Shown here in pieces: positions 3,276 through 60,768 of a stretch of DNA of 64,000 nucleotides; position 1 is the stretch's first letter; each line of letters opens with the position of its first letter. This DNA is from a virus (taxonomy: Duplodnaviria; Caudoviricetes). The notes under the pieces are model-generated. The model was not told where the DNA came from. It saw nothing but the letters and a program-made list of their open reading frames with translations, and did no database searches. The stretch is taken from IMG/VR virus record IMGVR_UViG_3300032285_001531; one strand, 5' to 3'. The position numbers and the translations under genes are program-made.

Positions 3276-3283
3276 TATAAATA
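3276..3283 (+). promoter_or_regulatory. T4-type late promoter TATAAATA
   Basis: exact TATAAATA followed by hairpin 3295-3319 and CA-rich leader. Confidence 0.6.
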
Positions 3284-3344
3284 GTTTTACAGTTTTTGAG
3301 GTTCTGCAAAAACCTCAAACATACACATACACAAGGAGAAAAAT

Positions 3345-3611
3345 ATGTTTAATTTCAATATGTTCGATCAGAACGCATTCAAGGATTTGTATACAGCAAA
3401 TTTCTACATCGATATGCTACAAAAGACCAAATCTGTATTAACTGATAAAGTTATTACTGATCCAGTACTAAACAAAGCAGCACATGAGTTTTTAGATGCA
3501 CAAACAGTGTTTGCTAAAATGGTAGCTACTAACACTACTACTATTGCAAAACATAGCATTGATTCAATTAGCAAAACTTATTTTCCAAATAGTAAGTCAA
3601 AGGCCGAATAA
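3345..3611 (+). CDS. hypothetical helical protein (possibly phasin-like)
   Basis: AAGGAG RBS; amphipathic helical pattern. Confidence 0.6.
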   Translation: MFNFNMFDQNAFKDLYTANFYIDMLQKTKSVLTDKVITDPVLNKAAHEFLDAQTVFAKMVATNTTTIAKHSIDSISKTYFPNSKSKAE

Positions 3612-15645: not shown

Positions 15646-16842
15646 ATGGAAGAAGAAAACAAACTAAATCACTGCAGTTTTTGCGGAACTAATAAAGAAT
15701 TTGTTAAGAAGCTTATAGTAGGGGACGGAGTAGCAATTTGTAGCGACTGCGTTGAATTATGTGATGACCTGATTATGGATGATTTTAAGATAGAATCTCC
15801 TAAATCAGAACCCAACTATGATCCTGACAAAATCAAAGCTTATTTGGATGAACACGTAATAGGTCAAGATAGTGCTAAGATTGTACTAAGTGTAGCAATC
15901 AGCAATCATTATAAACGTATTACTCACCCACCTAAAGACCTTGAGATTCAAAAGGGTAATGTACTAATCGTTGGACCTACAGGTTCAGGTAAAACATTGC
16001 TTGCCAAAACAGTTGCAAAATATCTTAAGGTTCCCTTCATTGTTGCTGATGCTACTAGCCTAACTGAAGCTGGTTATGTTGGTGATGATGTAGAGTCAAT
16101 GATTACTATGCTTGTTAATGCTGCAGGAGGTGATGTAGCTTTAGCTGAACAGGGTATTATATTTGTTGATGAAATAGATAAAATCGCACGTAAAGGCGAA
16201 AGTACAAGTATTACCCGTGATGTAAGTGGTGAAGGTGTACAGCAAGCATTATTAAAGCTAGTTGAAGGTACGACTTGCAGAGTATCATCACAAGGTGGCA
16301 GAAAGCATCCGGGCAATGATATGAATGAAATAAACACTAAGAACATATTATTCATTGCAGGAGGAGCCTTTGTTGGTCTGAAAGACGTTATAGCTACACG
16401 TGAAAATGGAACTAGTATTGGATTTAGTGCAAGCATCAAAGATACAAAAATTGAGGGTGATTTAAGTAAAGTTACTCCGGACGATTTAACAAAGTATGGA
16501 ATGATTCCTGAGTTTATTGGACGTTTTACAACTACAGTCAGTATTAGCGAACTGAACAAAGAACAGTTAATTAAGGTTCTTAAGGATGTGAAAAATAACT
16601 ATATCAGTCAGTATAAATATCTATTCAGTTTAGACAAGATAGAACTAAGTTTTACAGACGAAGCTTTAGAACAGATAGCAGAGAATACATTAACGCTAAA
16701 AACTGGGGCTAGAGGCTTACATACTGAGATTGAGCGTGTATTAATGACACACATGTACAATGTGGGCAGATACAAAGAAAATAATATAAAAACGCTAAAT
16801 ATTACTAAGGATGATGTTTTAGAACCTAAATCAATATTATGA
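15646..16842 (+). CDS. clpX: ATP-dependent Clp protease ATP-binding subunit ClpX
   Basis: C4 zinc domain CSFC...CSDC, GPTGSGKT, FVDEIDK, DVSGEGVQQALLK, IGF loop, TGARGL. Confidence 0.95.
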   Translation: MEEENKLNHCSFCGTNKEFVKKLIVGDGVAICSDCVELCDDLIMDDFKIESPKSEPNYDPDKIKAYLDEHVIGQDSAKIVLSVAISNHYKRITHPPKDLEIQKGNVLIVGPTGSGKTLLAKTVAKYLKVPFIVADATSLTEAGYVGDDVESMITMLVNAAGGDVALAEQGIIFVDEIDKIARKGESTSITRDVSGEGVQQALLKLVEGTTCRVSSQGGRKHPGNDMNEINTKNILFIAGGAFVGLKDVIATRENGTSIGFSASIKDTKIEGDLSKVTPDDLTKYGMIPEFIGRFTTTVSISELNKEQLIKVLKDVKNNYISQYKYLFSLDKIELSFTDEALEQIAENTLTLKTGARGLHTEIERVLMTHMYNVGRYKENNIKTLNITKDDVLEPKSIL

Positions 16843-17054
16843 GTGGAAAAAAAGTAATCGTACATGACGGCAATGTTGAGAAAGCATTGCGTAAATTCAA
16901 AAAGAAAGTTGCAGAATCTGGTATTCTGCAAGAAGTACGTGAGCGCCAAGAATATGTCAAACCCAACATCAAACGCAAAGTAGCCAAAAGTCTTGCAAAA
17001 AGACGCTGGAAGAAATTCCTAAAAGATCAAACTCTCCCCAAAAAATTATATTAA
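16839..17054 (+). CDS. rpsU: 30S ribosomal protein bS21
   Basis: VEKALRKFKKKV..SGIL.EVRERQEYVKP..KRK. Confidence 0.9.
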   Translation: MSGKKVIVHDGNVEKALRKFKKKVAESGILQEVRERQEYVKPNIKRKVAKSLAKRRWKKFLKDQTLPKKLY

Positions 17055-17091
17055 CCTAAATAATTTACTTTTTTACGCAAAAAGTATACAC

Positions 17092-17161
17092 TAAATATAC
17101 AAGTAGATGCCGAAGTCGGGTCTACTTAATGTCATAACTTGCTTATTGAAAGGAGATAAAA
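17092..17161 (+). promoter_or_regulatory. late promoter plus ROSE-like RNA thermometer leader of hsp20
   Basis: TAAATA 17092-17097, hairpin 17101-17127, CTTGCTT (17138-17144) able to pair with AAGGAG SD. Confidence 0.65.
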
Positions 17162-17608
17162 ATGACAAATTCAACACTAACCCTTCGTGCCCGCGATATT
17201 CCCGCAATTCATAGATTTGGTATCGGTTTCGATACTATGATAGATGAACTACTACGACTATCCTCGGTACAACAAAGTAATTACCCTCCGTATAACCTTC
17301 TAAAAATAGATGAGGACGTTTTCAATATTGAAATCGCCGTTGCTGGATTCAAAGAAGGCGAAATTGAGGTTACCATAGAAAAAAATGTATTGACCGTTAA
17401 GGGTGCTAAAAAAGACGGCATTCCAGAAAACATCGAATACGTACATCATGGCATCAGTACACGTAATTTTGAGCGCACTTTCCCATTAGCTGAACATATT
17501 GAAGTTAAGGGTGCTATCATACGTGACGGTATGCTAGTTATTGATTTGGTCCGTATCATCCCAGAAGATGAGAAGCCCAAATCTATTGCTATTTCTTACG
17601 TAAAGTAA
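17162..17608 (+). CDS. ibpA: small heat-shock protein Hsp20 (IbpA-like)
   Basis: NYPPYNL, IEIAVAGF, HHGISTRNFERTFPLAEH, DGMLVIDL. Confidence 0.93.
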   Translation: MTNSTLTLRARDIPAIHRFGIGFDTMIDELLRLSSVQQSNYPPYNLLKIDEDVFNIEIAVAGFKEGEIEVTIEKNVLTVKGAKKDGIPENIEYVHHGISTRNFERTFPLAEHIEVKGAIIRDGMLVIDLVRIIPEDEKPKSIAISYVK

Positions 17609-17667
17609 TAAACTAAATAAAAGTGTGCAGTAATTCTGCTGCACACTTTACTCATATAAGGTAAAAG

Positions 17668-17973
17668 ATGGCAAATTCAGATACAAAACTAAAAATTAAA
17701 CCGAACTTTAAGATTCCGGAACCTCCTATGTACAAAATCATTTATATGAATGATGACCATACAAGCATGGACTTTGTAGTTAGCAGCCTAATTGAACATT
17801 TTAATTATAATGCAGATACCGCTGTCAATATTACACAGAATATTCATGTTGAAGGATCAGCTACAGTAGCAGTGTTACCTTATGAGATAGCCGAACAAAA
17901 GGGTATTGAAGTAACTGTAGATGCAAGATCACAGGGATTTCCGTTACAGGTTAAAATAGAACAAGAAGGTTAA
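17668..17973 (+). CDS. clpS: ATP-dependent Clp protease adaptor ClpS
   Basis: PPMYKIIYMNDDHTSMDFV, IHVEGSA, YEIAEQK, GFPLQ. Confidence 0.9.
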   Translation: MANSDTKLKIKPNFKIPEPPMYKIIYMNDDHTSMDFVVSSLIEHFNYNADTAVNITQNIHVEGSATVAVLPYEIAEQKGIEVTVDARSQGFPLQVKIEQEG

Positions 17974-26452: not shown

Positions 26453-26767
26453 TTAAGTTTTAGGTCCTGCAGATTGTTCTATAACTTCAACACCAGTACC
26501 TACTCCAAGGATACATGAAGTATCACCGTAAGTATCTATTACTGTAAATGTTTTGGTTTCAGGATTTCCCCAAAAGGATATCATATGTTGACTTGATCCT
26601 AATCCTTTTCCCACTACTATTGGTACCTCAACATATTCTTTTTTTAATGTCTGCACTATAACTGCAGTATCATCACATATTACTTCAAACGGTACAGAAT
26701 GTTGCTCTGCATTACTTAGAGTTGGTGCGATACACAGTATCCCAATCAGAAGGTAAATTTTGTTCAC
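26453..26767 (-). CDS. secreted hypothetical protein
   Basis: GTG start with GGAGA RBS; signal peptide; Cys pair. Confidence 0.65.
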   Translation of the reverse strand: MNKIYLLIGILCIAPTLSNAEQHSVPFEVICDDTAVIVQTLKKEYVEVPIVVGKGLGSSQHMISFWGNPETKTFTVIDTYGDTSCILGVGTGVEVIEQSAGPKT

Positions 26768-28766
26768 GTAGTTCTCCTATTCTTTCTATCATCATATGAT
26801 AGTATTTGTCCATCTCTGAATCAAATTCCCCATGAAGTTGGTTCAGTAGTTCTAATGCTTCATCCCACTTTTGCTTGCGGTAGTGATCCAGCATCAGGTC
26901 ATGTTCTACACGTGATACTAAATATTCTGCCATTGAGTTTGCATCTGTTTTTAATACTGTAAAGATTCTAACACCTTCAGTCTTACCTTTTACTGCTATA
27001 ATATCTAATTCTAATGTGAAGTAATCATCACTTATCTGTTCTGCTGTCTTAGGTCCTAATACAATCTTGACACCATAAGGCTTAGACTGTCCTTCCAAAC
27101 GTGAAGCAAGATTGACACCATCACCAAGGCAAGTATAGTCAAAACGTTGACTAGACCCCATATTTCCCACAACAACAGTATCGGTATTGATTCCCAGACC
27201 CATACCAAAAGCTGGCACACCTTCTTTCGTAATTTCTTCATTGAACTCAGTTAAACTTTCCATCATCTCTAATGCCGTTTTAACAGCATCTTTTGCATGA
27301 TTGCTATTACCTACTGGAGCATTCCAGAAAGCCATTTGTGCATCGCCAATATACTTGTCTAATGTACCTTTGTTTTCTAGTATCTTTTTTGTCATAGCAG
27401 TCATGTACCTATTCATGATCTTTGTAAGACCCTGAACGTCTTTGCCATAATGTTCACTGATTGTTGTAAAGCCACGAACATCAGTAAACATAATAGACAA
27501 TTCTTGGCTTTCTCCACCTAACTTAAGTAGATCGGGTTGTCGTTGCAATTGTGCAACTAAGTCTGGTGATAAGTATGTACCAAACTGTTTCTTAATTTGT
27601 TGTTTTTGTAAAAATTCACTTATGAACTTAATGCCATAGCAATGTAGCATAACCAACACACTACTAACAATAAGCGCAGTGGCATCGACAAGCCATTTGT
27701 ACTTGGTAAAAGTATAAAAACTACCGGGCACAACGCTGCCAATAATAATGACAGATATAATAATTCCAGCATATGTCCACCTTGATATAAAAATAATTAT
27801 TAGACCTACTAGTATCAAGCCTAATATCTCAGCACCGTCTATCCAATCAGGACGTTCGATGTTAACTCCATTAATCATTGTGCCAATTACTGCTGCTTGT
27901 ACATCTTGTGGATATACTGCACCACGTGCTGTTGGTACTGGATTAGCTATACCTGCTGCACTTGTTCCTACGATTACTATTGCACCACCAAAGTCTGCGG
28001 GTAAGTCAACTGCACTTACACTCTTATTACTTTGACTCCAATCAATCCATATACGACCTAATGGATCAGTGCTGATTGGTCCGAACTGAGGTATACGCAT
28101 TTTCTCTACACCTAGTTCATTTAATTTAATTTGAAAACTTGGATCACCTGCAGCAACACGTAATGTTTCTAATGCTATTGAAGGATATAGTAAATCATTT
28201 ACACTTACTACTAAAGGTAATCTACGATTAACACCATCAATCTCAGGCATTACATTTGCAATACCAACACCTGCAGCATTTTCTTCTAATGGGCTTACGT
28301 TAGCAATTAATCCAGGATACACTACAATTCTATCAACAAATTCAGGACGCATAATACTTACACCAACTTGTTTAGGTGTATTCTTACTACGTGCTGAAGG
28401 TGTGTTACTTAATACTACAGGATGAGTTGCTAATGATTCTGCTAGTGCTTCATCTTGTCCGTTACGATCGGCTTCAGGCATTAATATATTCCACACTACA
28501 AGCCCCGCATGACGTTTATATAATTCATCAATTAGATTAGCATATTCATTTCTGGGTAAAGGCCATTGTCCATACTTATCTAGTGTAGCCTCATCTATGT
28601 TTACGGTGTAGATGTTGTTTTGTGTTATAGGTTGACTGATTATTACAGTATCAAAATATCGTAGACGAATTGATTCCACAAATGCAGGATCTGCAATGCG
28701 CAATAATGCTAACAATGCTAGTGTTATTAGTGAAGTCCAAGGGCTTAATAATATTTTCTTAATCAT
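26712..28766 (-). CDS. CHASE2-domain class III adenylate/guanylate cyclase
   Basis: IDEATLDKYGQWPLPR, D.DG..RRLPL, 3 TM, FTDVRGFT, DKYIGDA, GNMGS..RFDYTCLGDGVNLASRLEG. Confidence 0.93.
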   Translation of the reverse strand: MIKKILLSPWTSLITLALLALLRIADPAFVESIRLRYFDTVIISQPITQNNIYTVNIDEATLDKYGQWPLPRNEYANLIDELYKRHAGLVVWNILMPEADRNGQDEALAESLATHPVVLSNTPSARSKNTPKQVGVSIMRPEFVDRIVVYPGLIANVSPLEENAAGVGIANVMPEIDGVNRRLPLVVSVNDLLYPSIALETLRVAAGDPSFQIKLNELGVEKMRIPQFGPISTDPLGRIWIDWSQSNKSVSAVDLPADFGGAIVIVGTSAAGIANPVPTARGAVYPQDVQAAVIGTMINGVNIERPDWIDGAEILGLILVGLIIIFISRWTYAGIIISVIIIGSVVPGSFYTFTKYKWLVDATALIVSSVLVMLHCYGIKFISEFLQKQQIKKQFGTYLSPDLVAQLQRQPDLLKLGGESQELSIMFTDVRGFTTISEHYGKDVQGLTKIMNRYMTAMTKKILENKGTLDKYIGDAQMAFWNAPVGNSNHAKDAVKTALEMMESLTEFNEEITKEGVPAFGMGLGINTDTVVVGNMGSSQRFDYTCLGDGVNLASRLEGQSKPYGVKIVLGPKTAEQISDDYFTLELDIIAVKGKTEGVRIFTVLKTDANSMAEYLVSRVEHDLMLDHYRKQKWDEALELLNQLHGEFDSEMDKYYHMMIERIGELREQNLPSDWDTVYRTNSK

Positions 28767-38463: not shown

Positions 38464-39018
38464 ATGCGTGATATCATTACATTACTTGAGGATAAGAACA
38501 AACCTCAAGACATCGAAATAATTAATCTAAACTTTGAACCAAAAGACGTAAGCCCTGTCCTCAGCAAGGATACAATAGACTTACACTATGGTAAACTAGC
38601 CCATGGGTATGCAGAAAGATACAACAAGGGTGAAGGTGATCCTGATTTCAATTATGCAGGTGCATTTTTGCACAATACACTTTTCCCACAGTTCCGTGAA
38701 GTTCGTAATGATAACAAGCCTAATGGCCCTATGCTAGGATTCATCAAAAAACACTTTGGTGGATACGACAATATGAAGGATAAGTTTGAAGAAGAAGCTA
38801 TGAAGTTACAGGGTAGTAATTGGATTTATCTAGCGCACAATGGTACCATCAAAACAATCAAAAACCATGAAGTACGTAATGATATACTATTGTTAATTGA
38901 CTGGTGGGAACATGCATGGATCCTTGACTACGGCACAGATAAGAAAAAGTATCTAAAAGAACAGTGGAAGATCATCAACTGGAACGTCATCAACACACGT
39001 TGGGGCAAAAGTCTTTAA
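38464..39018 (+). CDS. sod: Fe/Mn superoxide dismutase
   Basis: DLHYGK, FLHN, DWWEHAW: all four metal ligands present. Confidence 0.85.
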   Translation: MRDIITLLEDKNKPQDIEIINLNFEPKDVSPVLSKDTIDLHYGKLAHGYAERYNKGEGDPDFNYAGAFLHNTLFPQFREVRNDNKPNGPMLGFIKKHFGGYDNMKDKFEEEAMKLQGSNWIYLAHNGTIKTIKNHEVRNDILLLIDWWEHAWILDYGTDKKKYLKEQWKIINWNVINTRWGKSL

Positions 39019-39056
39019 ATATAATGGTCAAGCACGTAGTCAATAAATATTAGACT

Positions 39057-39755
39057 ATGTATACCGATCAAAAAATCAAAGTAGTAGTCGCTACCGAATA
39101 TTCACAAGAAGATTTTAAGCAGAAAGCTGAAACTGCTAAATCACTAATGGCTACAAATCAGAAAAATATCCAGATTCATATTGCCACCAATAATAAATCT
39201 AGTTTAGGTGAAGTATATAATAACATAATTGAACAGAGTTTAGATGAAGATTATATTATTGTGTTCATGCATGACGATGTTATGATACTTGATTACTTCT
39301 GGCCATTAAGGGTTACGGAAGCATTAAAGAAATATGACGTTGTTGGATTAGCAGGAAATATAAAGAGAGTTGACTATCAACCCGCATGGGGACATTTAAT
39401 CAAAGAAAGTGGATTTGTTTGGGATGAAAATACAAACCTAACTGGTACTGTTGCGCACGGTCAAAACTGGTACCCAAACAATATCAACTATTATGGTCCT
39501 AGCGATCAAGAAGTAAAACTCTTAGATGGAGTGTTCTTAGCAGCACATAGTAACACATTAAAACAATCAGGACTACGATTCGACCCACAGTTTGACTTTC
39601 ATTTCTATGACATGGACTTCTGTAGACAAGCAGAATTAAAGAATCTAAAGATGGGTACATTTCCACTAGCCATAATTCATGCAGGGACAGGGTCATTAGG
39701 TACTGCTGAATGGAGTAAGAATTTTCGCAAGTATGCAGATAAGTATACAAAATAA
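39057..39755 (+). CDS. glycosyltransferase family 2-like protein
   Basis: YN..IE, FMHDDV, VGLAG, LDGVFLA, FHFYDMDFC. Confidence 0.75.
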   Translation: MYTDQKIKVVVATEYSQEDFKQKAETAKSLMATNQKNIQIHIATNNKSSLGEVYNNIIEQSLDEDYIIVFMHDDVMILDYFWPLRVTEALKKYDVVGLAGNIKRVDYQPAWGHLIKESGFVWDENTNLTGTVAHGQNWYPNNINYYGPSDQEVKLLDGVFLAAHSNTLKQSGLRFDPQFDFHFYDMDFCRQAELKNLKMGTFPLAIIHAGTGSLGTAEWSKNFRKYADKYTK

Positions 39756-39763
39756 GGAGTTAT

Positions 39764-40093
39764 ATGAATCTACAAGTATCAGAAAATGCCATAAAGAAAT
39801 TACATGAAATAGTAGAGGAGGAAAATGATCCTGCGCTAAGACTACGTATATTTGTACAAGGCGGTGGCTGTTCGGGTATGCAATATGGATTCACACTAGA
39901 TAATGAACAAAATGAAGATGACTTTGCAATTCCAGCAGGATCATTGAGTGTATTAATTGACAGTATTTCGGCACAATACTTAGAAAATGCTAGTATTGAC
40001 TACAGTGAAGATGTATACGGATCCAGCTTTAAAATCATTAATCCTAATGCTCAGACTACTTGTGGGTGTGGTTCTAGCTTTAATCCCTATTAA
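39764..40093 (+). CDS. erpA: Fe-S cluster insertion protein (ErpA/IscA, HesB family)
   Basis: LRIFVQGGGCSGMQYGF, CGCGSSF. Confidence 0.88.
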   Translation: MNLQVSENAIKKLHEIVEEENDPALRLRIFVQGGGCSGMQYGFTLDNEQNEDDFAIPAGSLSVLIDSISAQYLENASIDYSEDVYGSSFKIINPNAQTTCGCGSSFNPY

Positions 40094-54954: not shown

Positions 54955-55113
54955 GATTTTCCTTTATAAGTTAAATAGGCTATATGGTGAAGCCAATTAC
55001 CCCCTTTAGTAATGCAGAAGGGACTGCAGGATACTGGAGCAACGGGTGTGATTTGAACACACGGTTTTACAGATTTGCAATCTGCTGCATTGGGCCGCTC
55101 TGCCACCGTTGCA

Positions 55114-55329
55114 TTAAAGCTTTTTGTATTCGTGTGGATACGTCAATACAAATAGAGTATAATCTTTATCATCTAAAAATTCAATGATTCTTTTACTATT
55201 ATCTACAAATTTGTAATTAATGATATTGTATTGTTTAGCCCAATTGCAAAATTTTTTATATCTATCATTTGCTTTATGAGGCATGCCTGCTAATGGGCCT
55301 GTTACTGAACATATTTCTACAAGTATCAT
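55114..55329 (-). CDS. small phage protein, F-x-L family
   Basis: ends IEFLDDKDYTLFVLTYP. Confidence 0.55.
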   Translation of the reverse strand: MILVEICSVTGPLAGMPHKANDRYKKFCNWAKQYNIINYKFVDNSKRIIEFLDDKDYTLFVLTYPHEYKKL

Positions 55330-55336
55330 AATTGTT

Positions 55337-55410
55337 TGGCTCCGGTTGAGGGAATCGAACCCCCACTAATGGTTTTGGAGACCATCGCACTGCCATTATA
55401 CTAAACCGGA
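55337..55410 (-). tRNA. tRNA-Trp(CCA)
   Basis: cloverleaf; ATGGT-CTCCAAA-ACCAT; GTTCGA; encoded CCA. Confidence 0.9.
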
Positions 55411-55415
55411 ATATG

Positions 55416-55616
55416 TTATCTTATTTTGTTTAGGTATTCTCTACCTATGTGACCTTCTTCGATTTCTCTTAATGCTGTTACTGTAGTTTTATCTTTAGTA
55501 ACAATTTTAGGTGCATGACCACTTTTCAATTCACGTGCCCTCACACTTGCAATTAAAATTAAATCATAAAGACCGCCTGCCGCCTTAGCAGCTAATTCAC
55601 TTGTTCTGCCTTTCAT
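55416..55616 (-). CDS. rpoZ: RNA polymerase omega subunit
   Basis: GLYDLILIASVRAREL...K..VTALREIEEG. Confidence 0.8.
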   Translation of the reverse strand: MKGRTSELAAKAAGGLYDLILIASVRARELKSGHAPKIVTKDKTTVTALREIEEGHIGREYLNKIR

Positions 55617-55636
55617 TGTATTCCCTTTATGTTTAG

Positions 55637-55708
55637 TGGGTGATTAGAGGGTCGAACTCCCGACATTCGCCGTGTAAAGGCGCTACTCTACCACTGAGTT
55701 AATCACCC
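55637..55708 (-). tRNA. tRNA-Val(TAC), CCA not encoded
   Basis: GGGTGAT/ATCACCC acceptor stem; loop TTTACAC; 3' end reads A-CTA. Confidence 0.85.
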
Positions 55709-55714
55709 AGTTGA

Positions 55715-55891
55715 CTACACTCTTTCAATACGAATTGACATTGATTCATCTAAATTTAAACTTGCAGGAATAAGTCCTGCTTCTTTATCAGCGAATACAA
55801 GGTCAGTAATTGCTTTAGGATTATAACTAGTTACATTTCCTAAATCAATCGTTTTGTATAATGTGTCGTTTATGTATACGTTTACTTTCAT
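55715..55891 (-). CDS. small hypothetical protein (58 aa)
   Basis: not in ORF track; MKVNVYINDTLYKTIDLG. Confidence 0.55.
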   Translation of the reverse strand: MKVNVYINDTLYKTIDLGNVTSYNPKAITDLVFADKEAGLIPASLNLDESMSIRIERV

Positions 55892-55907
55892 ACATCTATT
55901 TATTAAT

Positions 55908-55991
55908 TGGTGCGTAAGGAGAGACTCGAACTCTCAATCCTTTCGGCACTGGCTTCTAAGACCAGCGTGTATACCATTCCACCACTTACGC
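55908..55991 (-). tRNA. tRNA-Leu(TAG)
   Basis: CTGGT-CTTAGAA-GCCAG; long variable arm; CCA. Confidence 0.92.
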
Positions 55992-55998
55992 ATTAATA

Positions 55999-56082
55999 TG
56001 GTACGAGAAGAGGGACTTGAACCCTCAATCCTTTCGGCGCAAGATTTTAAGTCTTGTGTGTATACCATTCCACCATTCTCGC
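55999..56082 (-). tRNA. tRNA-Leu(TAA)
   Basis: CAAGA-CTTAAAA-TCTTG; long variable arm; CCA. Confidence 0.92.
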
Positions 56083-56087
56083 ATTAC

Positions 56088-56161
56088 TGGAGCGGAGTGA
56101 GAGAATCGAACTCTCAACTAGAGCTTGGAAGGCTTTCGTTTTACCATTAAACTAACCCCGC
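56088..56161 (-). tRNA. tRNA-Gly(TCC)
   Basis: loop CTTCCAA; discriminator T; CCA. Confidence 0.92.
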
Positions 56162-56171
56162 ATTTACTACT

Positions 56172-56238
<67 letters not shown>

Positions 56239-56248
<10 letters not shown>

Positions 56249-56478
56249 CAATCATCTTCTTCATCTACACCATTGATAAAATCTTGTAACTTCTGCTTTG
56301 CTTCTTTTCTGCTTAATGCAGGTAGTGTAACAGTAGCAATACAATTTTTAATCTTTATATCAAACGGTACAACACCATGCGGCAGCCAGCCTTCTTCAAC
56401 CGGTACACTTACTGTGTACGATTTAAGTTTCATTATCCTATCAAGTATCTGTTTAGTAATATCCGCTGGATGTGGCAT
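56239..56478 (-). CDS. hypothetical phage protein
   Basis: 79 aa; last 10 nt overlap tRNA-Ile2. Confidence 0.6.
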
Positions 56479-56488
56479 AGTTGTTGAA

Positions 56489-56562
56489 TGGTGCCCCTTG
56501 ACAGAATCGAACTGCCAATTGATGATTACAAATCAACTGTTATACCATTTAACTAAAAGGGC
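56489..56562 (-). tRNA. tRNA-Thr(TGT)
   Basis: loop TTTGTAA; GCCCTTT acceptor; CCA. Confidence 0.9.
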
Positions 56563-56569
56563 GTTTTAA

Positions 56570-56731
56570 CTACTTAGTCTTACTTTCTATAGCACGTTTA
56601 ATTTTCATAACATGCTTAGGTCTTGCTGATTCTAAAAGTTTAGTTAACTGCTCTACGTTAAGAGGACCTAATCTAGTTTTGCCTGTCTTAGTTTTCATTG
56701 GATCACGTTTACTATCTTTTTTTACTGCCAT
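56570..56731 (-). CDS. small basic protein (53 aa)
   Basis: not in ORF track; GAGGA RBS; KTKTGKTRLGPLNVEQL. Confidence 0.6.
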   Translation of the reverse strand: MAVKKDSKRDPMKTKTGKTRLGPLNVEQLTKLLESARPKHVMKIKRAIESKTK

Positions 56732-56750
56732 ATTTTCCTCTTTATGTTAA

Positions 56751-56845
56751 TGGCGAAGAGTATTGGATTCGAACCAATGAAGCAGATTTGTGTCCGCTTG
56801 CCTTCTTAGCAGGAAGGTGCCTTCGACCAACTCGGCCAACTCTCC
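56751..56845 (-). tRNA. tRNA-Ser(GCT)
   Basis: CCTTC-CTGCTAA-GAAGG; long variable arm; GCCA end. Confidence 0.92.
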
Positions 56846-56855
56846 GATACAACCT

Positions 56856-57077
56856 TTACTGCTTGTCCTCGTACTTCTCATTCAACTTATCTACACCGTG
56901 TGAGAATCTAAAATAACTCACTAGCATACTGTACATTGCATAAACAAGAAGTGCTATAGCAATCCATGTTATAGCTACTGGATTAATATAATATAGTACT
57001 GCATAACCACCTACTATCATAGCTAACAATGCAAGTATTGCCTTTACTTCTGGTTTCAAACTATTAAATTTGTTCAT
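56856..57077 (-). CDS. small membrane protein
   Basis: two TM; AAGGA RBS. Confidence 0.65.
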   Translation of the reverse strand: MNKFNSLKPEVKAILALLAMIVGGYAVLYYINPVAITWIAIALLVYAMYSMLVSYFRFSHGVDKLNEKYEDKQ

Positions 57078-57142
57078 ACATAGTCCTTTATAACGGTTTA
57101 AGAGATTTAATTATATAATAAGTGCAGAGTAATGTCAAACAC

Positions 57143-58306
57143 TTAAATTCTGACTTTATCCAAAAATCTATGCATTCCTTCTAATACGGGTATCCAATCA
57201 CCATATGTTGCTTGTCTGAATATTCTAGCAGTTGGATACCATGGACTTAATCCAGTATTAAGTAGATATCTCCAATCAACTGCAAATGCATTCAATGGTA
57301 TCCATAAGTCTTTACCCATTGCACCTGCTAAATGTGCAATTGCTGTATCTACACTGATTATCATATCCATATTCGCTACAACTGCTGCTGTATCGCCCCA
57401 ATGTCTAATATGACCAGGAAATCTTAAGAATGCATTACTATTTTCTATTAATTGCATTTCTTGTTGACTTGCATCAGCCTGTAAACTAACCCATTCAATA
57501 TCAGGATTAAGTTGTGCTAACTGAATCATTAATTCTACTGGCATTGCTTTATGTTGATTGATCCAACTATCTTTACGACCACTCCAACATACACCAATAC
57601 GCATTTTAGTTTTAGGCCCTAATGCAACTCGCCATTGTTCAACTAAATTAGGATCAGCTTGAATATATCCTATCTCTTTTGGCAATGTATCATAAGTTAC
57701 TCCTAATACTCTAGGAACACTCATAGTCATTACCCAATAATCAAATTCACCTGCATCATTGATATCAGTAATAACTCTATTAATATTAGGATCACGTTCA
57801 AATAACTCTTGCATACCCTGATGTGTATGGAAAATTACTTTTGCACCAAGTGCAGTTAAGTATTTTAAAAAACGATAGAATTGAATTGTATCACCTAAAC
57901 CTTGTTCCCAACATACTAAGATAGTTTTACCTGTTAAATCTTCACCATTCCATTCAGGCTGAGAAAATTTATATTTTGTATCTGCTAGATGTTCATATTG
58001 CCAACGCCATTCATATTGTTCAAGACCACGCTTTAAGTCTCCCATTAACATATATGCTACTGATAGATTAAACTGTGCTGTTATATAGTCAGGCACTAAT
58101 GCACATGCATGTTGTAAGAAAGGTATTGCACGTGCAGGATATCCCATTTCACGTAATACATTTCCATAATTATTCCATGCATGAGGGTTTGTTGGGTCTT
58201 TGACAAAGGCTTGAGCATAACATTCTAATGCTTTATCAGGCTGCGTTGAATTACGATATTCATTGCCCTGTTCAATTAAATCATTTACGTCTACTATATC
58301 TGTCAT
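57143..58306 (-). CDS. TPR-repeat plus GT9-like glycosyltransferase
   Basis: TPRs (AWNNYGNVL); EQGLGDTIQF; ISVDTAIAHLAGAMG; W.YLL....SPWYPT. Confidence 0.85.
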   Translation of the reverse strand: MTDIVDVNDLIEQGNEYRNSTQPDKALECYAQAFVKDPTNPHAWNNYGNVLREMGYPARAIPFLQHACALVPDYITAQFNLSVAYMLMGDLKRGLEQYEWRWQYEHLADTKYKFSQPEWNGEDLTGKTILVCWEQGLGDTIQFYRFLKYLTALGAKVIFHTHQGMQELFERDPNINRVITDINDAGEFDYWVMTMSVPRVLGVTYDTLPKEIGYIQADPNLVEQWRVALGPKTKMRIGVCWSGRKDSWINQHKAMPVELMIQLAQLNPDIEWVSLQADASQQEMQLIENSNAFLRFPGHIRHWGDTAAVVANMDMIISVDTAIAHLAGAMGKDLWIPLNAFAVDWRYLLNTGLSPWYPTARIFRQATYGDWIPVLEGMHRFLDKVRI

Positions 58307-58322
58307 TATATCACTCGTTGTT

Positions 58323-58410
58323 TGGCGGAAGCGGTGAGATTCGAACTCACGGACCCTTTCGAGCCTCTAGCTTTCAAGGCTAGTGTAATCGGCCACTCTA
58401 CCACACTTCC
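58323..58410 (-). tRNA. tRNA-Ser(TGA)
   Basis: CTAGC-CTTGAAA-GCTAG; long variable arm; GCCA end. Confidence 0.92.
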
Positions 58411-58650
58411 TTATTTTCTATTCCTAAGTTTCATTCCTACATATGTACCACAAAATGCACCTATACATGCAGGTATTAATAACATATGATCGGCGGTATA
58501 TTCAATCACAGCTAAACTACCAATTAACCATACAATAGCACCCCAAAGACTAGCTGTTAGGGCGGCATTTTCACTGATAGCTTTTAAATAGTATGTATAG
58601 AATATATCTACTACAAACACTGCAAGAAAGGTAGTTAGGTAACTTATCAT
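58411..58650 (-). CDS. small membrane protein
   Basis: 3 hydrophobic helices. Confidence 0.65.
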   Translation of the reverse strand: MISYLTTFLAVFVVDIFYTYYLKAISENAALTASLWGAIVWLIGSLAVIEYTADHMLLIPACIGAFCGTYVGMKLRNRK

Positions 58651-58695
58651 TGTTAAGGTATAATTGAAGCGGGTGATAATCACCCGCTTTGATGC

Positions 58696-60588
58696 TTAAT
58701 TTGCTTCTTTTACTTCGGCATCAACAACTGTTTCATCAGTTGGAGGACCATCTGGCATTTCTTTGTTGCGCTTCTCAGCTTCCCAAGCAATAGTTTTCTG
58801 CATCAACTCACCAATTTCTTTAACTGCTGCGTCCATGTCATCTTTACTATCGCCCTTTGCCGTCTCTTTATATTTACTTAGAGATTCAGTGATGGCTGTT
58901 TTTTCCTCAGCAGGAACATAATCACCTAAATTCTCAATTTGAGATTCAAGATGACCAATGCTACTATCTAAACTATTACGTGCACCAACAAGTTCAACAA
59001 TTTTCTTATCTTCTTCAGCATTCAATTCAGCATCTTTGACCATTTGATCAATCTCTTGCTCTGATAAGCCACTGTTTGCTTTGATTGTGATTTCTTTTTC
59101 TTTGTTGGTTTTCTTATCAACTGCTTTAACTGATAAGATACCATTCGCATCAATGTCAAATGTAACTTCAATTTGTGGTACTCCGCGTGGTGCTGGATCG
59201 ATACCTTCTAAATTGAATTCACCTAAACGTTTGTTACCACTTACAATCTCACGTTCACCTTGATAAACACTGATAGTAACTGATGGCTGATTGTTTTCTG
59301 CAGTAGAATAAACTTGACTGTACTTTGTAGGTATAGTTGTGTTCTTCTTAATCATCTTAGTCATAACACCACCCATTGTTTCAATGCCTAATGATAATGG
59401 AGTTACATCTAATAACAATACGTCTTTACGATCACCACCTAATACTGCACCTTGAATTGCTGCACCAACTGCAACGGCTTCATCAGGATTAACATCTTTA
59501 CGTGGAGCCTTACCGAATAGCTTCTCAACTTCTTCTTGCACCTTAGGCATACGTGTCATACCACCAACAAGAATAATCTCATCAATGTCACTTGCAGTAA
59601 CGCCTGCATCTTTCATTGCAACTTTACATGGCTCAATACTACGCTGAATTAAATCTTCTACTAATGATTCTAACTTAGCACGTGTGATCTTAACATTCAA
59701 ATGCTTAGGACCAGTTGCATCTGCAGTGATGTATGGTAAGTTAACATCAGTTTGTGTACTGTTAGATAGTTCAATCTTTGTACGTTCTGCTGCCTCTTTC
59801 AAACGTTGTAGTGCCATCATGTCTTTACTTAAATCAACACCTGAATCTTTTTTGAACTCAGCAATGATGTGATCCATTATTCTTTGGTCAAAATCTTCAC
59901 CGCCCAAGAATGTGTCACCGTTTGTGGAAAGTACTTCGAATTGTTTATCGCCATCCACATTATTGATGTCAATGATAGATATATCAAAAGTACCGCCACC
60001 AAGATCATAGACAGCAACTTTGCGGTCTGTTTTTTCATTCTTATCTACTCCATATGCCAATGCTGCTGCAGTTGGCTCATTAATAATACGCAATACTTCT
60101 AAGCCTGCAATTCTACCTGCATCCTTAGTTGCTTGACGTTGACTGTCATTAAAGTACGCTGGTACTGTAATAACTGCTTGTGTAACTTCTTCACCTAAGA
60201 AATCTTCTGCTGTCTTTTTCATCTTACGTAAAACTTCAGCACTTATTTGAGGTGGTGCATACTTCTTATCTTCTACTTGTACCCATGCATCACCGTTATC
60301 TGCTGCAACGATTTTATATGGAATCAAGTCAATATCTTTCTGTACTGCTTTCTCATCAAACTTACGTCCGATTAGTCGCTTAGCAGCATAGATTGTATTT
60401 TTTGGATTAGTTACAGCTTGACGTTTTGCTGGTGCACCAACAGTGATTTCACCGTTTTGCATATACGCAATAATACTAGGTGTAGTTCTTGCACCTTCGC
60501 TGTTCTCTAATACTTTTGGGGTTTTGCCATCTATGATAGCAACGCATGAATTGGTAGTACCTAGGTCGATACCTATAATCTTAGACAT
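58696..60588 (-). CDS. dnaK: molecular chaperone DnaK (Hsp70)
   Basis: [52 protein letters not shown]. Confidence 0.98.
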
Positions 60589-60660
60589 ATTTTTCTCCTT
60601 TAAATTAAGCAAGATTTTTTATCAGAAGCCCGTAAGGCGCATCTGAGACATGTATTTATA
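60589..60660 (-). promoter_or_regulatory. late promoter plus ROSE-like RNA thermometer leader of dnaK
   Basis: TATAAATA 60653-60660, hairpin 60622-60646, CTTGCTT 60607-60613 able to pair with AAGGAG 60595-60600. Confidence 0.65.
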
Positions 60661-60692
60661 CATGGGAAAATGTAAAATATCAATATATTTGG

Positions 60693-60768
60693 TGGTGCCC
60701 ATTGACGGATTCGAACCGCCGACCTACTGATTACTAATCAGTTGCTCTACCAACTGAGCTAAATGGGC
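60693..60768 (-). tRNA. tRNA-Thr(AGT)
   Basis: ACTGA-TTAGTAA-TCAGT anticodon arm; GCCCATT acceptor; CCA. Confidence 0.9.

Follow-up and report, generated by a model that had tools for sequence, protein, structure and literature searches.

The window analysed here, by which we mean the whole 64-kb stretch of phage DNA, carries the chaperone genes dnaK and hsp20, and each of them is preceded by a short leader with two hairpins (Table 1). The dnaK leader sits in the 5′ UTR and ends at the start codon of this heat-shock gene (Hsp70). Its hairpin 1 reads UCAGA-U-GC-G-CC / UUAC / GG-GC-U-UCUGA, that is, an outer stem of 5 bp, a U/U mismatch, a GC/GC step, a bulged G60638, a CC/GG step and the loop UUAC. 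After an A-rich spacer of 7 nt comes the anti-Shine–Dalgarno stretch (anti-SD) UCUUGCUU at 60614-60607, which reads UCUU-G-CUU and pairs, across a 6-nt loop (60606-60601), with the Shine–Dalgarno sequence (SD) AAGGAG(A) at 60600-60594. The segment UUGCU (60612-60608), lying opposite AAGGAG with G60610 bulged, is the U(U/C)GCU hallmark of ROSE-like thermometers. The dnaK ATG follows SD AAGGAGA after 5 nt. RNAfold places both hairpins in the minimum-energy as well as the centroid structure, with a fold energy of −12.2 kcal/mol compared to −7.4 kcal/mol in shuffles (z −2.1). An earlier note, made from the sequence, had described these elements on the minus strand; all of them were found, and hairpin 1 folds as first drawn. 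Both dnaK and a TPR/glycosyltransferase-like gene (57143-58306) lie among 11 tRNA genes of the minus strand (55035-60768).

In the hsp20 leader the anti-SD CUUGCUU (17138-17144, bulged G17141) pairs with AAGGAG (17150-17155). An extra outer helix joins an anti-AUG stretch UGUCAU (17130-17135) to AUGACA (17162-17167), so that the start codon is also sequestered. An anti-AUG stretch of at least 5 nt is present in 25 of 65 hsp20 leaders compared to 2 of 62 dnaK leaders, and in the relative L081 this helix shows a compensatory change (AGUCAU with AUGACU). Layout, first hairpin and the CUUGCUU/AAGGAG stem are shared by the two leaders of the window, and the earlier view that the dnaK leader is of the hsp20 type is borne out: they form one family. 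The same promoter motif had also been claimed for hsp20, wrongly, since the motif there is CTAAATA and not TATAAATA; in two relatives, L081 and L082, ATAATAAATA occupies the matching position. The hairpin-1 stems of dnaK and hsp20 differ within this one phage, which argues that the dnaK copy is not a recent duplicate of the hsp20 copy.

The hsp20 gene stands in a cluster of proteostasis and translation genes (15646-17973), with ClpX at 15646-16842, the ribosomal protein bS21 at 16839-17054 (PF01165), overlapping the ClpX stop, and ClpS at 17668-17973. In freshwater phages, a link between phage-encoded bS21 and late-stage replication has been described (PMC9723584).

Table 1. Coordinates of the leaders, their parts and neighbouring genes in the window, and of leader copies at other loci (given by locus label); R1 is the covariance model described in the text.
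Feature	Position	Strand	Basis and remarks
TTGATA, −35-like hexamer	60678..60683	minus	read from sequence; 17 nt upstream of TATAAA
TATAAATA, promoter-like −10 / T4-late-type motif	60660-60653	minus	read from sequence; 6 nt between motif end and hairpin 1
Hairpin 1 of dnaK leader	60646-60622	minus	MFE fold; aligns with helix 1 of ROSE_3 and R1
Hairpin 2 of dnaK leader	60614-60594	minus	MFE fold
dnaK (Hsp70), 630 aa	58696..60588	minus	ATG 60588-60586; Pfam PF00012, E 5.9e-257, full-length
tRNA-Thr(AGU)	60693..60768	minus	ARAGORN and Rfam; adjoins the dnaK promoter region on its upstream side
CTAAATA, promoter-like motif of hsp20	17091..17097	plus	read from sequence; one base off the relatives' ATAAATA
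hsp20 leader	17101-17164	plus	layout as in the dnaK leader; 43 kb away on the opposite strand
Hairpin 1 of hsp20 leader	17101..17127	plus	MFE fold; AAGUAGAU-G-CCG / AAGU / CGG-GUCUACUU
Hairpin 2 of hsp20 leader	17130..17167	plus	anti-SD and anti-AUG pairings
hsp20 (IbpA-type small heat-shock protein), 148 aa	17162..17608	plus	Pfam PF00011, E 5.8e-17
Leader before groES or 88-aa ORF, L122	1501-1564	minus	
Leader before groES or 88-aa ORF, L073	4874-4927		
Leader before groES or 88-aa ORF, L012/L013	921-978		
hsp20 leader, cultured phage, L253	2446-2509		
hsp20 leader, cultured phage, L254	938-991		
hsp20 leader, cultured phage, L255	930-1006		
hsp20 leader, cultured phage, L256	945-1003		
hsp20 leader, cultured phage, L257	901-958		
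Phage-type two-hairpin leader (dnaK or sHsp gene), cellular, L140	7761-7824	minus	
Phage-type two-hairpin leader (dnaK or sHsp gene), cellular, L251	1501-1558	plus	
Rhizobial-type dnaK leader, L153	2850-2991		

Family membership and conservation

Small heat-shock genes of bacteria are the textbook targets of ROSE-type thermometers. With the Rfam model ROSE_3 (RF02523), the hsp20 leader gives a full-length match of 42.6 bits, 0.4 below the cut-off of 43, and the hsp20 leader of the closest related contig, a sister phage, scores 53.7 bits, above that cut-off. The full-length match on the dnaK leader reaches 20.5 bits, far under the gathering score. The hairpin-1 core of the hsp20 leader, GAUGCCGAAGUCGGGUC, is identical to that of the ROSE_3 consensus. 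The classical ROSE model (RF00435), with three to four hairpins, matched neither leader at E up to 10. Among other Rfam families, CIRCE-like ones included, there was no credible candidate for the dnaK leader; freshwater-2, at 20.4 bits, shares the SD tail alone.

We also used a model of the phage leaders themselves, R1, a covariance model built from 15 dnaK leaders of other phages, the window excluded, with a hand-written structure. Its seed was anchored by hand and realigned with Infernal; it replaced an approach with MAFFT and RNAalifold, which on 53 raw upstream regions had returned 5 pairs only, because the stems were misaligned. Run on the 64-kb window with filters off, R1 finds exactly two sites, one being the dnaK leader with 58.6 bits (E 5.5e-12), the other the hsp20 leader with 45.3 bits (E 8.7e-9); the next best hit has 15.4 bits.

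Could the two leaders look alike merely by chance, as AT-rich upstream stretches with a strong SD in common might? AAGGAG often serves as SD in the window and AGGAG occurs in 10 other leaders, as such an explanation would have it. However, all of those 10 lack an anti-SD, no other AAGGAG site in the window is preceded within 2-9 nt by the anti-SD CTTGCTT, and the combined motif CTTGCTT-N2-9-AAGGAG occurs at two sites, one per leader, against 0.02 expected. Together with the R1 scores and an element kept with covariation in more than 100 contigs, this refutes the chance explanation, to which we give practically no credence. Membership of both leaders in one ROSE-like family of the ROSE_3 type is, by sequence and model scores, solid.

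Searching IMG/VR with the DnaK and Hsp20 proteins of the window gave 80 dnaK loci (70-84% identity) and 34 hsp20 loci, and nearly all of the dnaK loci have the same upstream layout. On the 80 dnaK loci R1 marks 118 copies of the leader, with 67 before dnaK, 47 before hsp20 and 3 before groES (Cpn10); in one relative a copy precedes an 88-aa ORF of unassigned function. In the relatives the hsp20 copies mostly adjoin the dnaK stop codon, and no promoter separates the two. These observations support a leader that is tied almost only to chaperone genes in the related phages. Two complete relatives of 360 kb have exactly two copies each, and in the window the regulon consists of two genes, dnaK and hsp20. 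The proposal of a phage heat-shock "regulon built purely from RNA thermometers" was, with two copies in the window and two per complete relative, overstated.

Conservation was measured on 106 distinct leaders from related IMG/VR contigs. Standard pairs fill 95.8% of pair cells, a share that drops to 42-62% in controls with slid 3′ partners; having been fitted to the model, the alignment favours the structure, but the slid controls and the raw folds agree nonetheless. In helix 1, 97% of cells are paired and compensatory double changes are seen in 7 of 9 pairs. Double-change cells number 292, against 84 in shuffles. Hairpin 1 has a conserved core, which the ROSE_3 consensus shares: its closing pair is U.G or C-G, one G is bulged (in 94 of 99 leaders), and a CC/GG step is present. 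Hairpin 1 is shown by this sequence comparison to be a conserved structure.

Helix 2 has no compensatory change among the 106 leaders, which is expected because one of its strands is the SD. The anti-SD CUU(G/A)CUU is invariant in all 106, with flanking positions that vary; the bulged base is G in 96 leaders and A in 10. The two strands of hairpin 2 can pair, as judged by sequence invariance, and covariation leaves helix 2 unproven. The covariation that had been named as a check in the earlier note is seen for hairpin 1 and does not appear in helix 2. A variant with three hairpins also exists upstream of dnaK, with an extra, nearly invariant middle hairpin GGGCA-nnn-UGCCC (L052, L058, L059, L063-L067, L069-L071, L073, L074 and L078-L080), often together with the bulged-A form of the anti-SD, UCUUACUU.

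Promoter motif and timing of transcription

The late promoter of T4 is TATAAATA, a consensus placed roughly 6 nt ahead of the transcript start, and NATAAATA has been reported in T4-like cyanophages. In the relatives, (N)ATAAATA is kept upstream of the leader in 59 of 107 distinct upstream regions and usually ends 5 nt before the R1 match, so the transcript would open with hairpin 1, in agreement with a T4-type late promoter. Of the 21 ATAAATA copies in the window, 13 lie 0-70 nt upstream of a same-strand ORF start, where 1.4 would be expected at random positions; for permuted heptamers the share at ORF starts is 6-23%, and ATAAATA is rarer in the window than any of its 20 letter permutations. 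The T4-type capsid protein Gp23 is encoded in three near-complete relatives (330-367 kb; E about 1e-99), from which it follows that the group is T4-like. The dnaK locus thus resembles T4-type late promoters in its exact TATAAATA, in the Gp23 of the relatives and in a motif tied to gene starts.

Two features differ from that type. The window has a −35-like hexamer at 17 nt, and its ATAAATA motifs stand before genes with no evident late role, among them those for superoxide dismutase (SOD), a glycosyltransferase and an IscA-like protein. Annotation of the large window ORFs with PHROGs and Pfam returned no virion or late genes, and in three relatives the major capsid gene follows its neighbour gene without a promoter. 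A perfect TTGACA at 16-18 nt upstream (TTGACA-N17-TATAAATA) is found in 6 of 59 relatives; across the relatives, a −35 element is not generally enriched (a mean of 2.9 of 6 matches compared to 2.7 at control offsets). A consensus promoter scan reported no sigma-70 site at either leader; it missed the TTGATA/TATAAA pair of dnaK because this −10 ends in A. The sigma-32 promoter of P. putida ibpA is CTTGAA-N13-18-CNCCATAT (PMC3669281). By eye, a sigma-32-like aTTGAt-N12-tCCCATgT overlaps the TATAAATA region of dnaK; none of the closest relatives keeps it, whereas TATAAATA is conserved. No terminator was called at either leader by a terminator scan and no U-run follows hairpin 1, which argues that hairpin 1 is not an intrinsic terminator.

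Late transcription of the dnaK leader is plausible from the motif and its setting. The "late transcripts" of the earlier note are thus favoured by T4-like relatives and by ATAAATA at gene starts, but TTGATA at 17 nt, the kinds of genes behind the motif and the hsp20 leaders of most relatives, which are intercistronic without a promoter, speak against them.

Sites of ATAAATA in the window include 12035, 18661, 38452, 39043, 40100 and 63399, and often stand only 4-8 nt before an ATG. If ATAAATA were a −10 element, such spacing would yield leaderless or nearly leaderless mRNAs. Unusual auxiliary genes lie at 38464-40093 (plus strand), for Fe/Mn superoxide dismutase, the glycosyltransferase and the IscA-like Fe-S assembly protein, and a CHASE2-sensor adenylate/guanylate cyclase of 684 aa at 26712-28766 (minus strand).

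How the leader may act

The 61 nt from 60646 to 60586 (minus strand) are probably a two-hairpin ROSE-like leader for translational control, homologous to the hsp20 leader and to the thermometers of Pseudomonas ibpA. For ibpA of P. putida and P. aeruginosa it was shown that the SD is paired with U(U/C)GCU in hairpin II, which opens between 25 and 42 °C and is sufficient for thermoregulation, whereas hairpin I stays closed and its disruption derepresses; hairpin I is proposed to stabilise the ibpA mRNA or its fold (Krajewski et al. 2013, PMC3669281). The phage leaders are like these ROSE_3 thermometers in having two hairpins in about 60 nt, a hairpin 1 core (G)AU-G-CC...GG-GUC with a bulged G, U(U/C)GCU/SD pairing around a bulged G, and a start codon within about 7-10 nt. 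They differ in that the gene is dnaK and not one for a small heat-shock protein (sHsp), a feature that the second copy, at hsp20, does have; hairpin 2 of the window is without flanking G-C pairs, the promoter motif is TATAAATA and not a sigma-32 promoter, and the carrier is a T4-like phage. With the classical rhizobial ROSE (RF00435, at class A sHsp operons) the phage leader shares the principle and the U(U/C)GCU/SD pairing with its bulged G, but the classical element has three to four hairpins (PMC3669281) and the phage leader two.

By homology with Pseudomonas ibpA, thermometer function is the best-supported reading and the most likely one. The transcript would begin a few bases past TATAAATA, which would put hairpin 1 at the 5′ end of the mRNA, where it may stabilise the message or aid its folding. 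Hairpin 2 would mask the ribosome-binding site at low temperature and melt on warming, and DnaK and Hsp20 would therefore be made together at the level of translation, without the host heat-shock sigma factor. The hsp20 leader, which sequesters the AUG too, should be the tighter switch of the two. This suggests that phages control their own chaperones post-transcriptionally, independent of sigma-32 or HrcA circuits of the host.

Nearest-neighbour predictions of hairpin 2 give the dnaK leader −7.4, −5.6, −3.9, −1.9 and −1.0 kcal/mol at 4, 15, 25, 37 and 42 °C. For the hsp20 leader (inner stem only) the values are −4.2, −2.8, −1.5 and −0.3 kcal/mol at 4, 15, 25 and 37 °C, and for the ROSE_3 consensus at the same four temperatures −13.9, −11.8, −10.0 and −7.8 kcal/mol. 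On these predictions the phage hairpin 2 is less stable than the Pseudomonas consensus by about 6-7.5 kcal/mol, and so the switching range, if the leaders are thermometers, would be low, roughly 5-25 °C. Such a range would suit a cool-water phage, a habitat that we assume. It would also make these leaders natural examples of very short SD hairpins with little stability, perhaps switching in the cold, of possible use as parts and for the physiology of cold-water phages and their hosts.

Other predictions do not single out a temperature response. Hairpin 2 alone is no more stable than its shuffles (z −0.67 and +0.12). The partition function including the coding start shows competing folds and no clear opening of the SD with temperature for both leaders of the window, and the trend of unpaired SD with temperature in the leaders of relatives is no different from that in control leaders. 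Against thermometer function we also count that the role of heat shock for a lytic aquatic phage is not obvious, and the strict sequence conservation of the hairpin 1 core, with its bulged G and CC-GG step, is not explained by a pure thermometer.

The marginal in silico stability of hairpin 2 would equally agree with a constitutive element for mRNA stability and translation tuning, in which hairpin 1 guards the 5′ end and hairpin 2, sensing nothing, damps a very strong SD to set the dosage of the chaperones. The suggestion by Krajewski et al. that hairpin I stabilises the ibpA mRNA points the same way, as does one more gene of the window: at 3276-3347 (plus strand), a perfect 8-bp 5′ hairpin (UUGAGGUU...AACCUCAA) comes directly after TATAAATA and precedes an unmasked SD and ATG, and therefore the arrangement of promoter plus 5′ hairpin exists also without an anti-SD. 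Still, we consider pure tuning quite improbable, given that the anti-SD hairpin is confined to chaperone genes in phages and in cells, that the anti-SD of the window is found at dnaK and hsp20 only, and that the homologues are proven thermosensors (PMC3669281).

A different kind of sensing is suggested by work on IbpA itself. In E. coli, Cedecea and Vibrio, IbpA binds the ROSE-like 5′ UTR of its own mRNA and thereby represses its translation; no other residue can stand in for R93 here, a positive charge is needed at R97/K98 and an aromatic residue at Y34, and R93 is said to be common in alpha- and gamma-proteobacterial IbpAs (PMC10474464). We aligned the window Hsp20 with E. coli IbpA and IbpB from the MG1655 record and found Y41, R101 and R105 as equivalents of Y34, R93 and R97. 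The R93 and R97 equivalents are also kept by four other phage Hsp20s and a Micavibrio sHsp, and that of Y34 by all but one phage Hsp20, while E. coli IbpB is without R93 or R97.

Since these residues are retained and the leader is common to hsp20 and dnaK, the leader could be a shared sHsp operator, at which phage Hsp20 or host IbpA would repress translation of hsp20 and dnaK until titrated away by aggregating or unassembled proteins. We regard this as possible though unlikely, and with the same reserve the circuit would sense folding load instead of, or besides, temperature. An operator would fit the conserved hairpin 1 core, which is one of sequence besides structure, and a hairpin 2 whose predicted strength would not suffice for repression by itself at moderate temperature. 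Several points tell against it: the K98 position is T in the window Hsp20, the RNA features recognised by IbpA are not defined in the available text of PMC10474464, and in some phages (such as G003) the leader stands on dnaK without a detected hsp20 match, so that host IbpA would be needed. An operator is compatible with a thermometer and does not exclude one.

Compared to the E. coli ibpA leader (PMC10474464; bioRxiv 10.1101/2020.04.20.050740), the hsp20 copy is alike in being a ROSE-like 5′ UTR on an IbpA-type gene whose mRNA-binding residues are kept; in E. coli the leader is longer and comprises three to four hairpins (PMC3669281). The further target of E. coli IbpA named in the available part of PMC10410725 is the sigma-32 (rpoH) mRNA, not dnaK. 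A full proteostasis feedback loop of the phage, in which Hsp20 would bind the bulged-G core in the hsp20 and dnaK mRNAs and, in relatives, also in that of groES, and would be titrated by unfolded virion proteins, we hold to be a rather improbable conjecture. If true, assembly load would switch on the whole chaperone set, and temperature would do no more than modulate the weak SD hairpin.

Cellular copies, cultured phages and origin

Returning to the ROSE-like leader, preferred here as a thermometer, full-text literature searches found no paper on a ROSE-like element at a phage gene or at dnaK, and the papers found on large aquatic phages mention DnaK, DnaJ and Hsp20 but not the leader. Outside sHsp genes, ROSE-like elements are known for ABC transporters (PMC11342760). 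Judged by its sequence, the leader is a known ROSE-like module on a new gene class (dnaK, and groES in relatives) and in a new carrier, a large family of aquatic phages of the T4-like type.

The link to dnaK is not a novelty of the phage, since some cellular Alphaproteobacteria carry the same leader on dnaK and on a sHsp gene. A pattern scan of 185,579 species genomes, with CTTGCT-N-AGGAG-N-ATG followed by a DnaK N-terminus, gave at least 120 loci, and among the matches listed these were mostly from Alphaproteobacteria (many Rhizobium, Micavibrio and uncultured lineages). R1 reaches E <0.2 at 20 of the 80 cellular loci listed. One cellular dnaK copy, on a 934-kb contig, has 48.2 bits with R1 and 30 bits with ROSE_3, and one Micavibrio genome has R1 matches at both dnaK and a 158-aa sHsp gene. 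Some short MAG contigs with the leader may be phage contamination; the long contigs are not.

The phage-type two-hairpin leader is seen on dnaK, and in one genome also on the 158-aa sHsp gene, in uncultured Alphaproteobacteria and Micavibrio (L140, L251 and L250), and these genomes are candidate donors or hosts of the phage module. DnaK identity to the cellular loci varies too little (65-74%) to single out a donor or host. It is reasonable to hypothesize from these comparisons that the phage most likely took dnaK and hsp20, with their leaders, from alphaproteobacterium-like cells.

The dnaK leaders of the Rhizobium type were not found by R1. By eye they have a covarying outer stem, a core AAUGCC...GGGGUU that resembles the one of ROSE_3, and immediately after it CUUGCUU-CA-AGGAG, and no paper was found that describes a ROSE-like element on rhizobial dnaK. 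ROSE-like control would thereby be extended to Hsp70 in some Alphaproteobacteria, the Rhizobium-type dnaK leader included. The outer stem is GCUGUC/GACAGC in some of these leaders and GCCGCC/GGCGGC in others, and they occur in many Rhizobium species, Liberibacter, Aureimonas and others (L125-L204, e.g., L153, L166, L156 and L144).

Finally, the leader is also present in cultured phages. In five of five tested, the R1 match (17-31 bits) ends at the annotated hsp20 start: the Synechococcus phages S-SRM01, S-RIM8 and S-CAM1, phage C48C1 and the Pelagibacter phage HTVC115P. The set comprises four Kyanoviridae, three of them the Synechococcus phages, and one pelagiphage. With an hsp20 copy in cultured cyanophages, the idea is directly testable.
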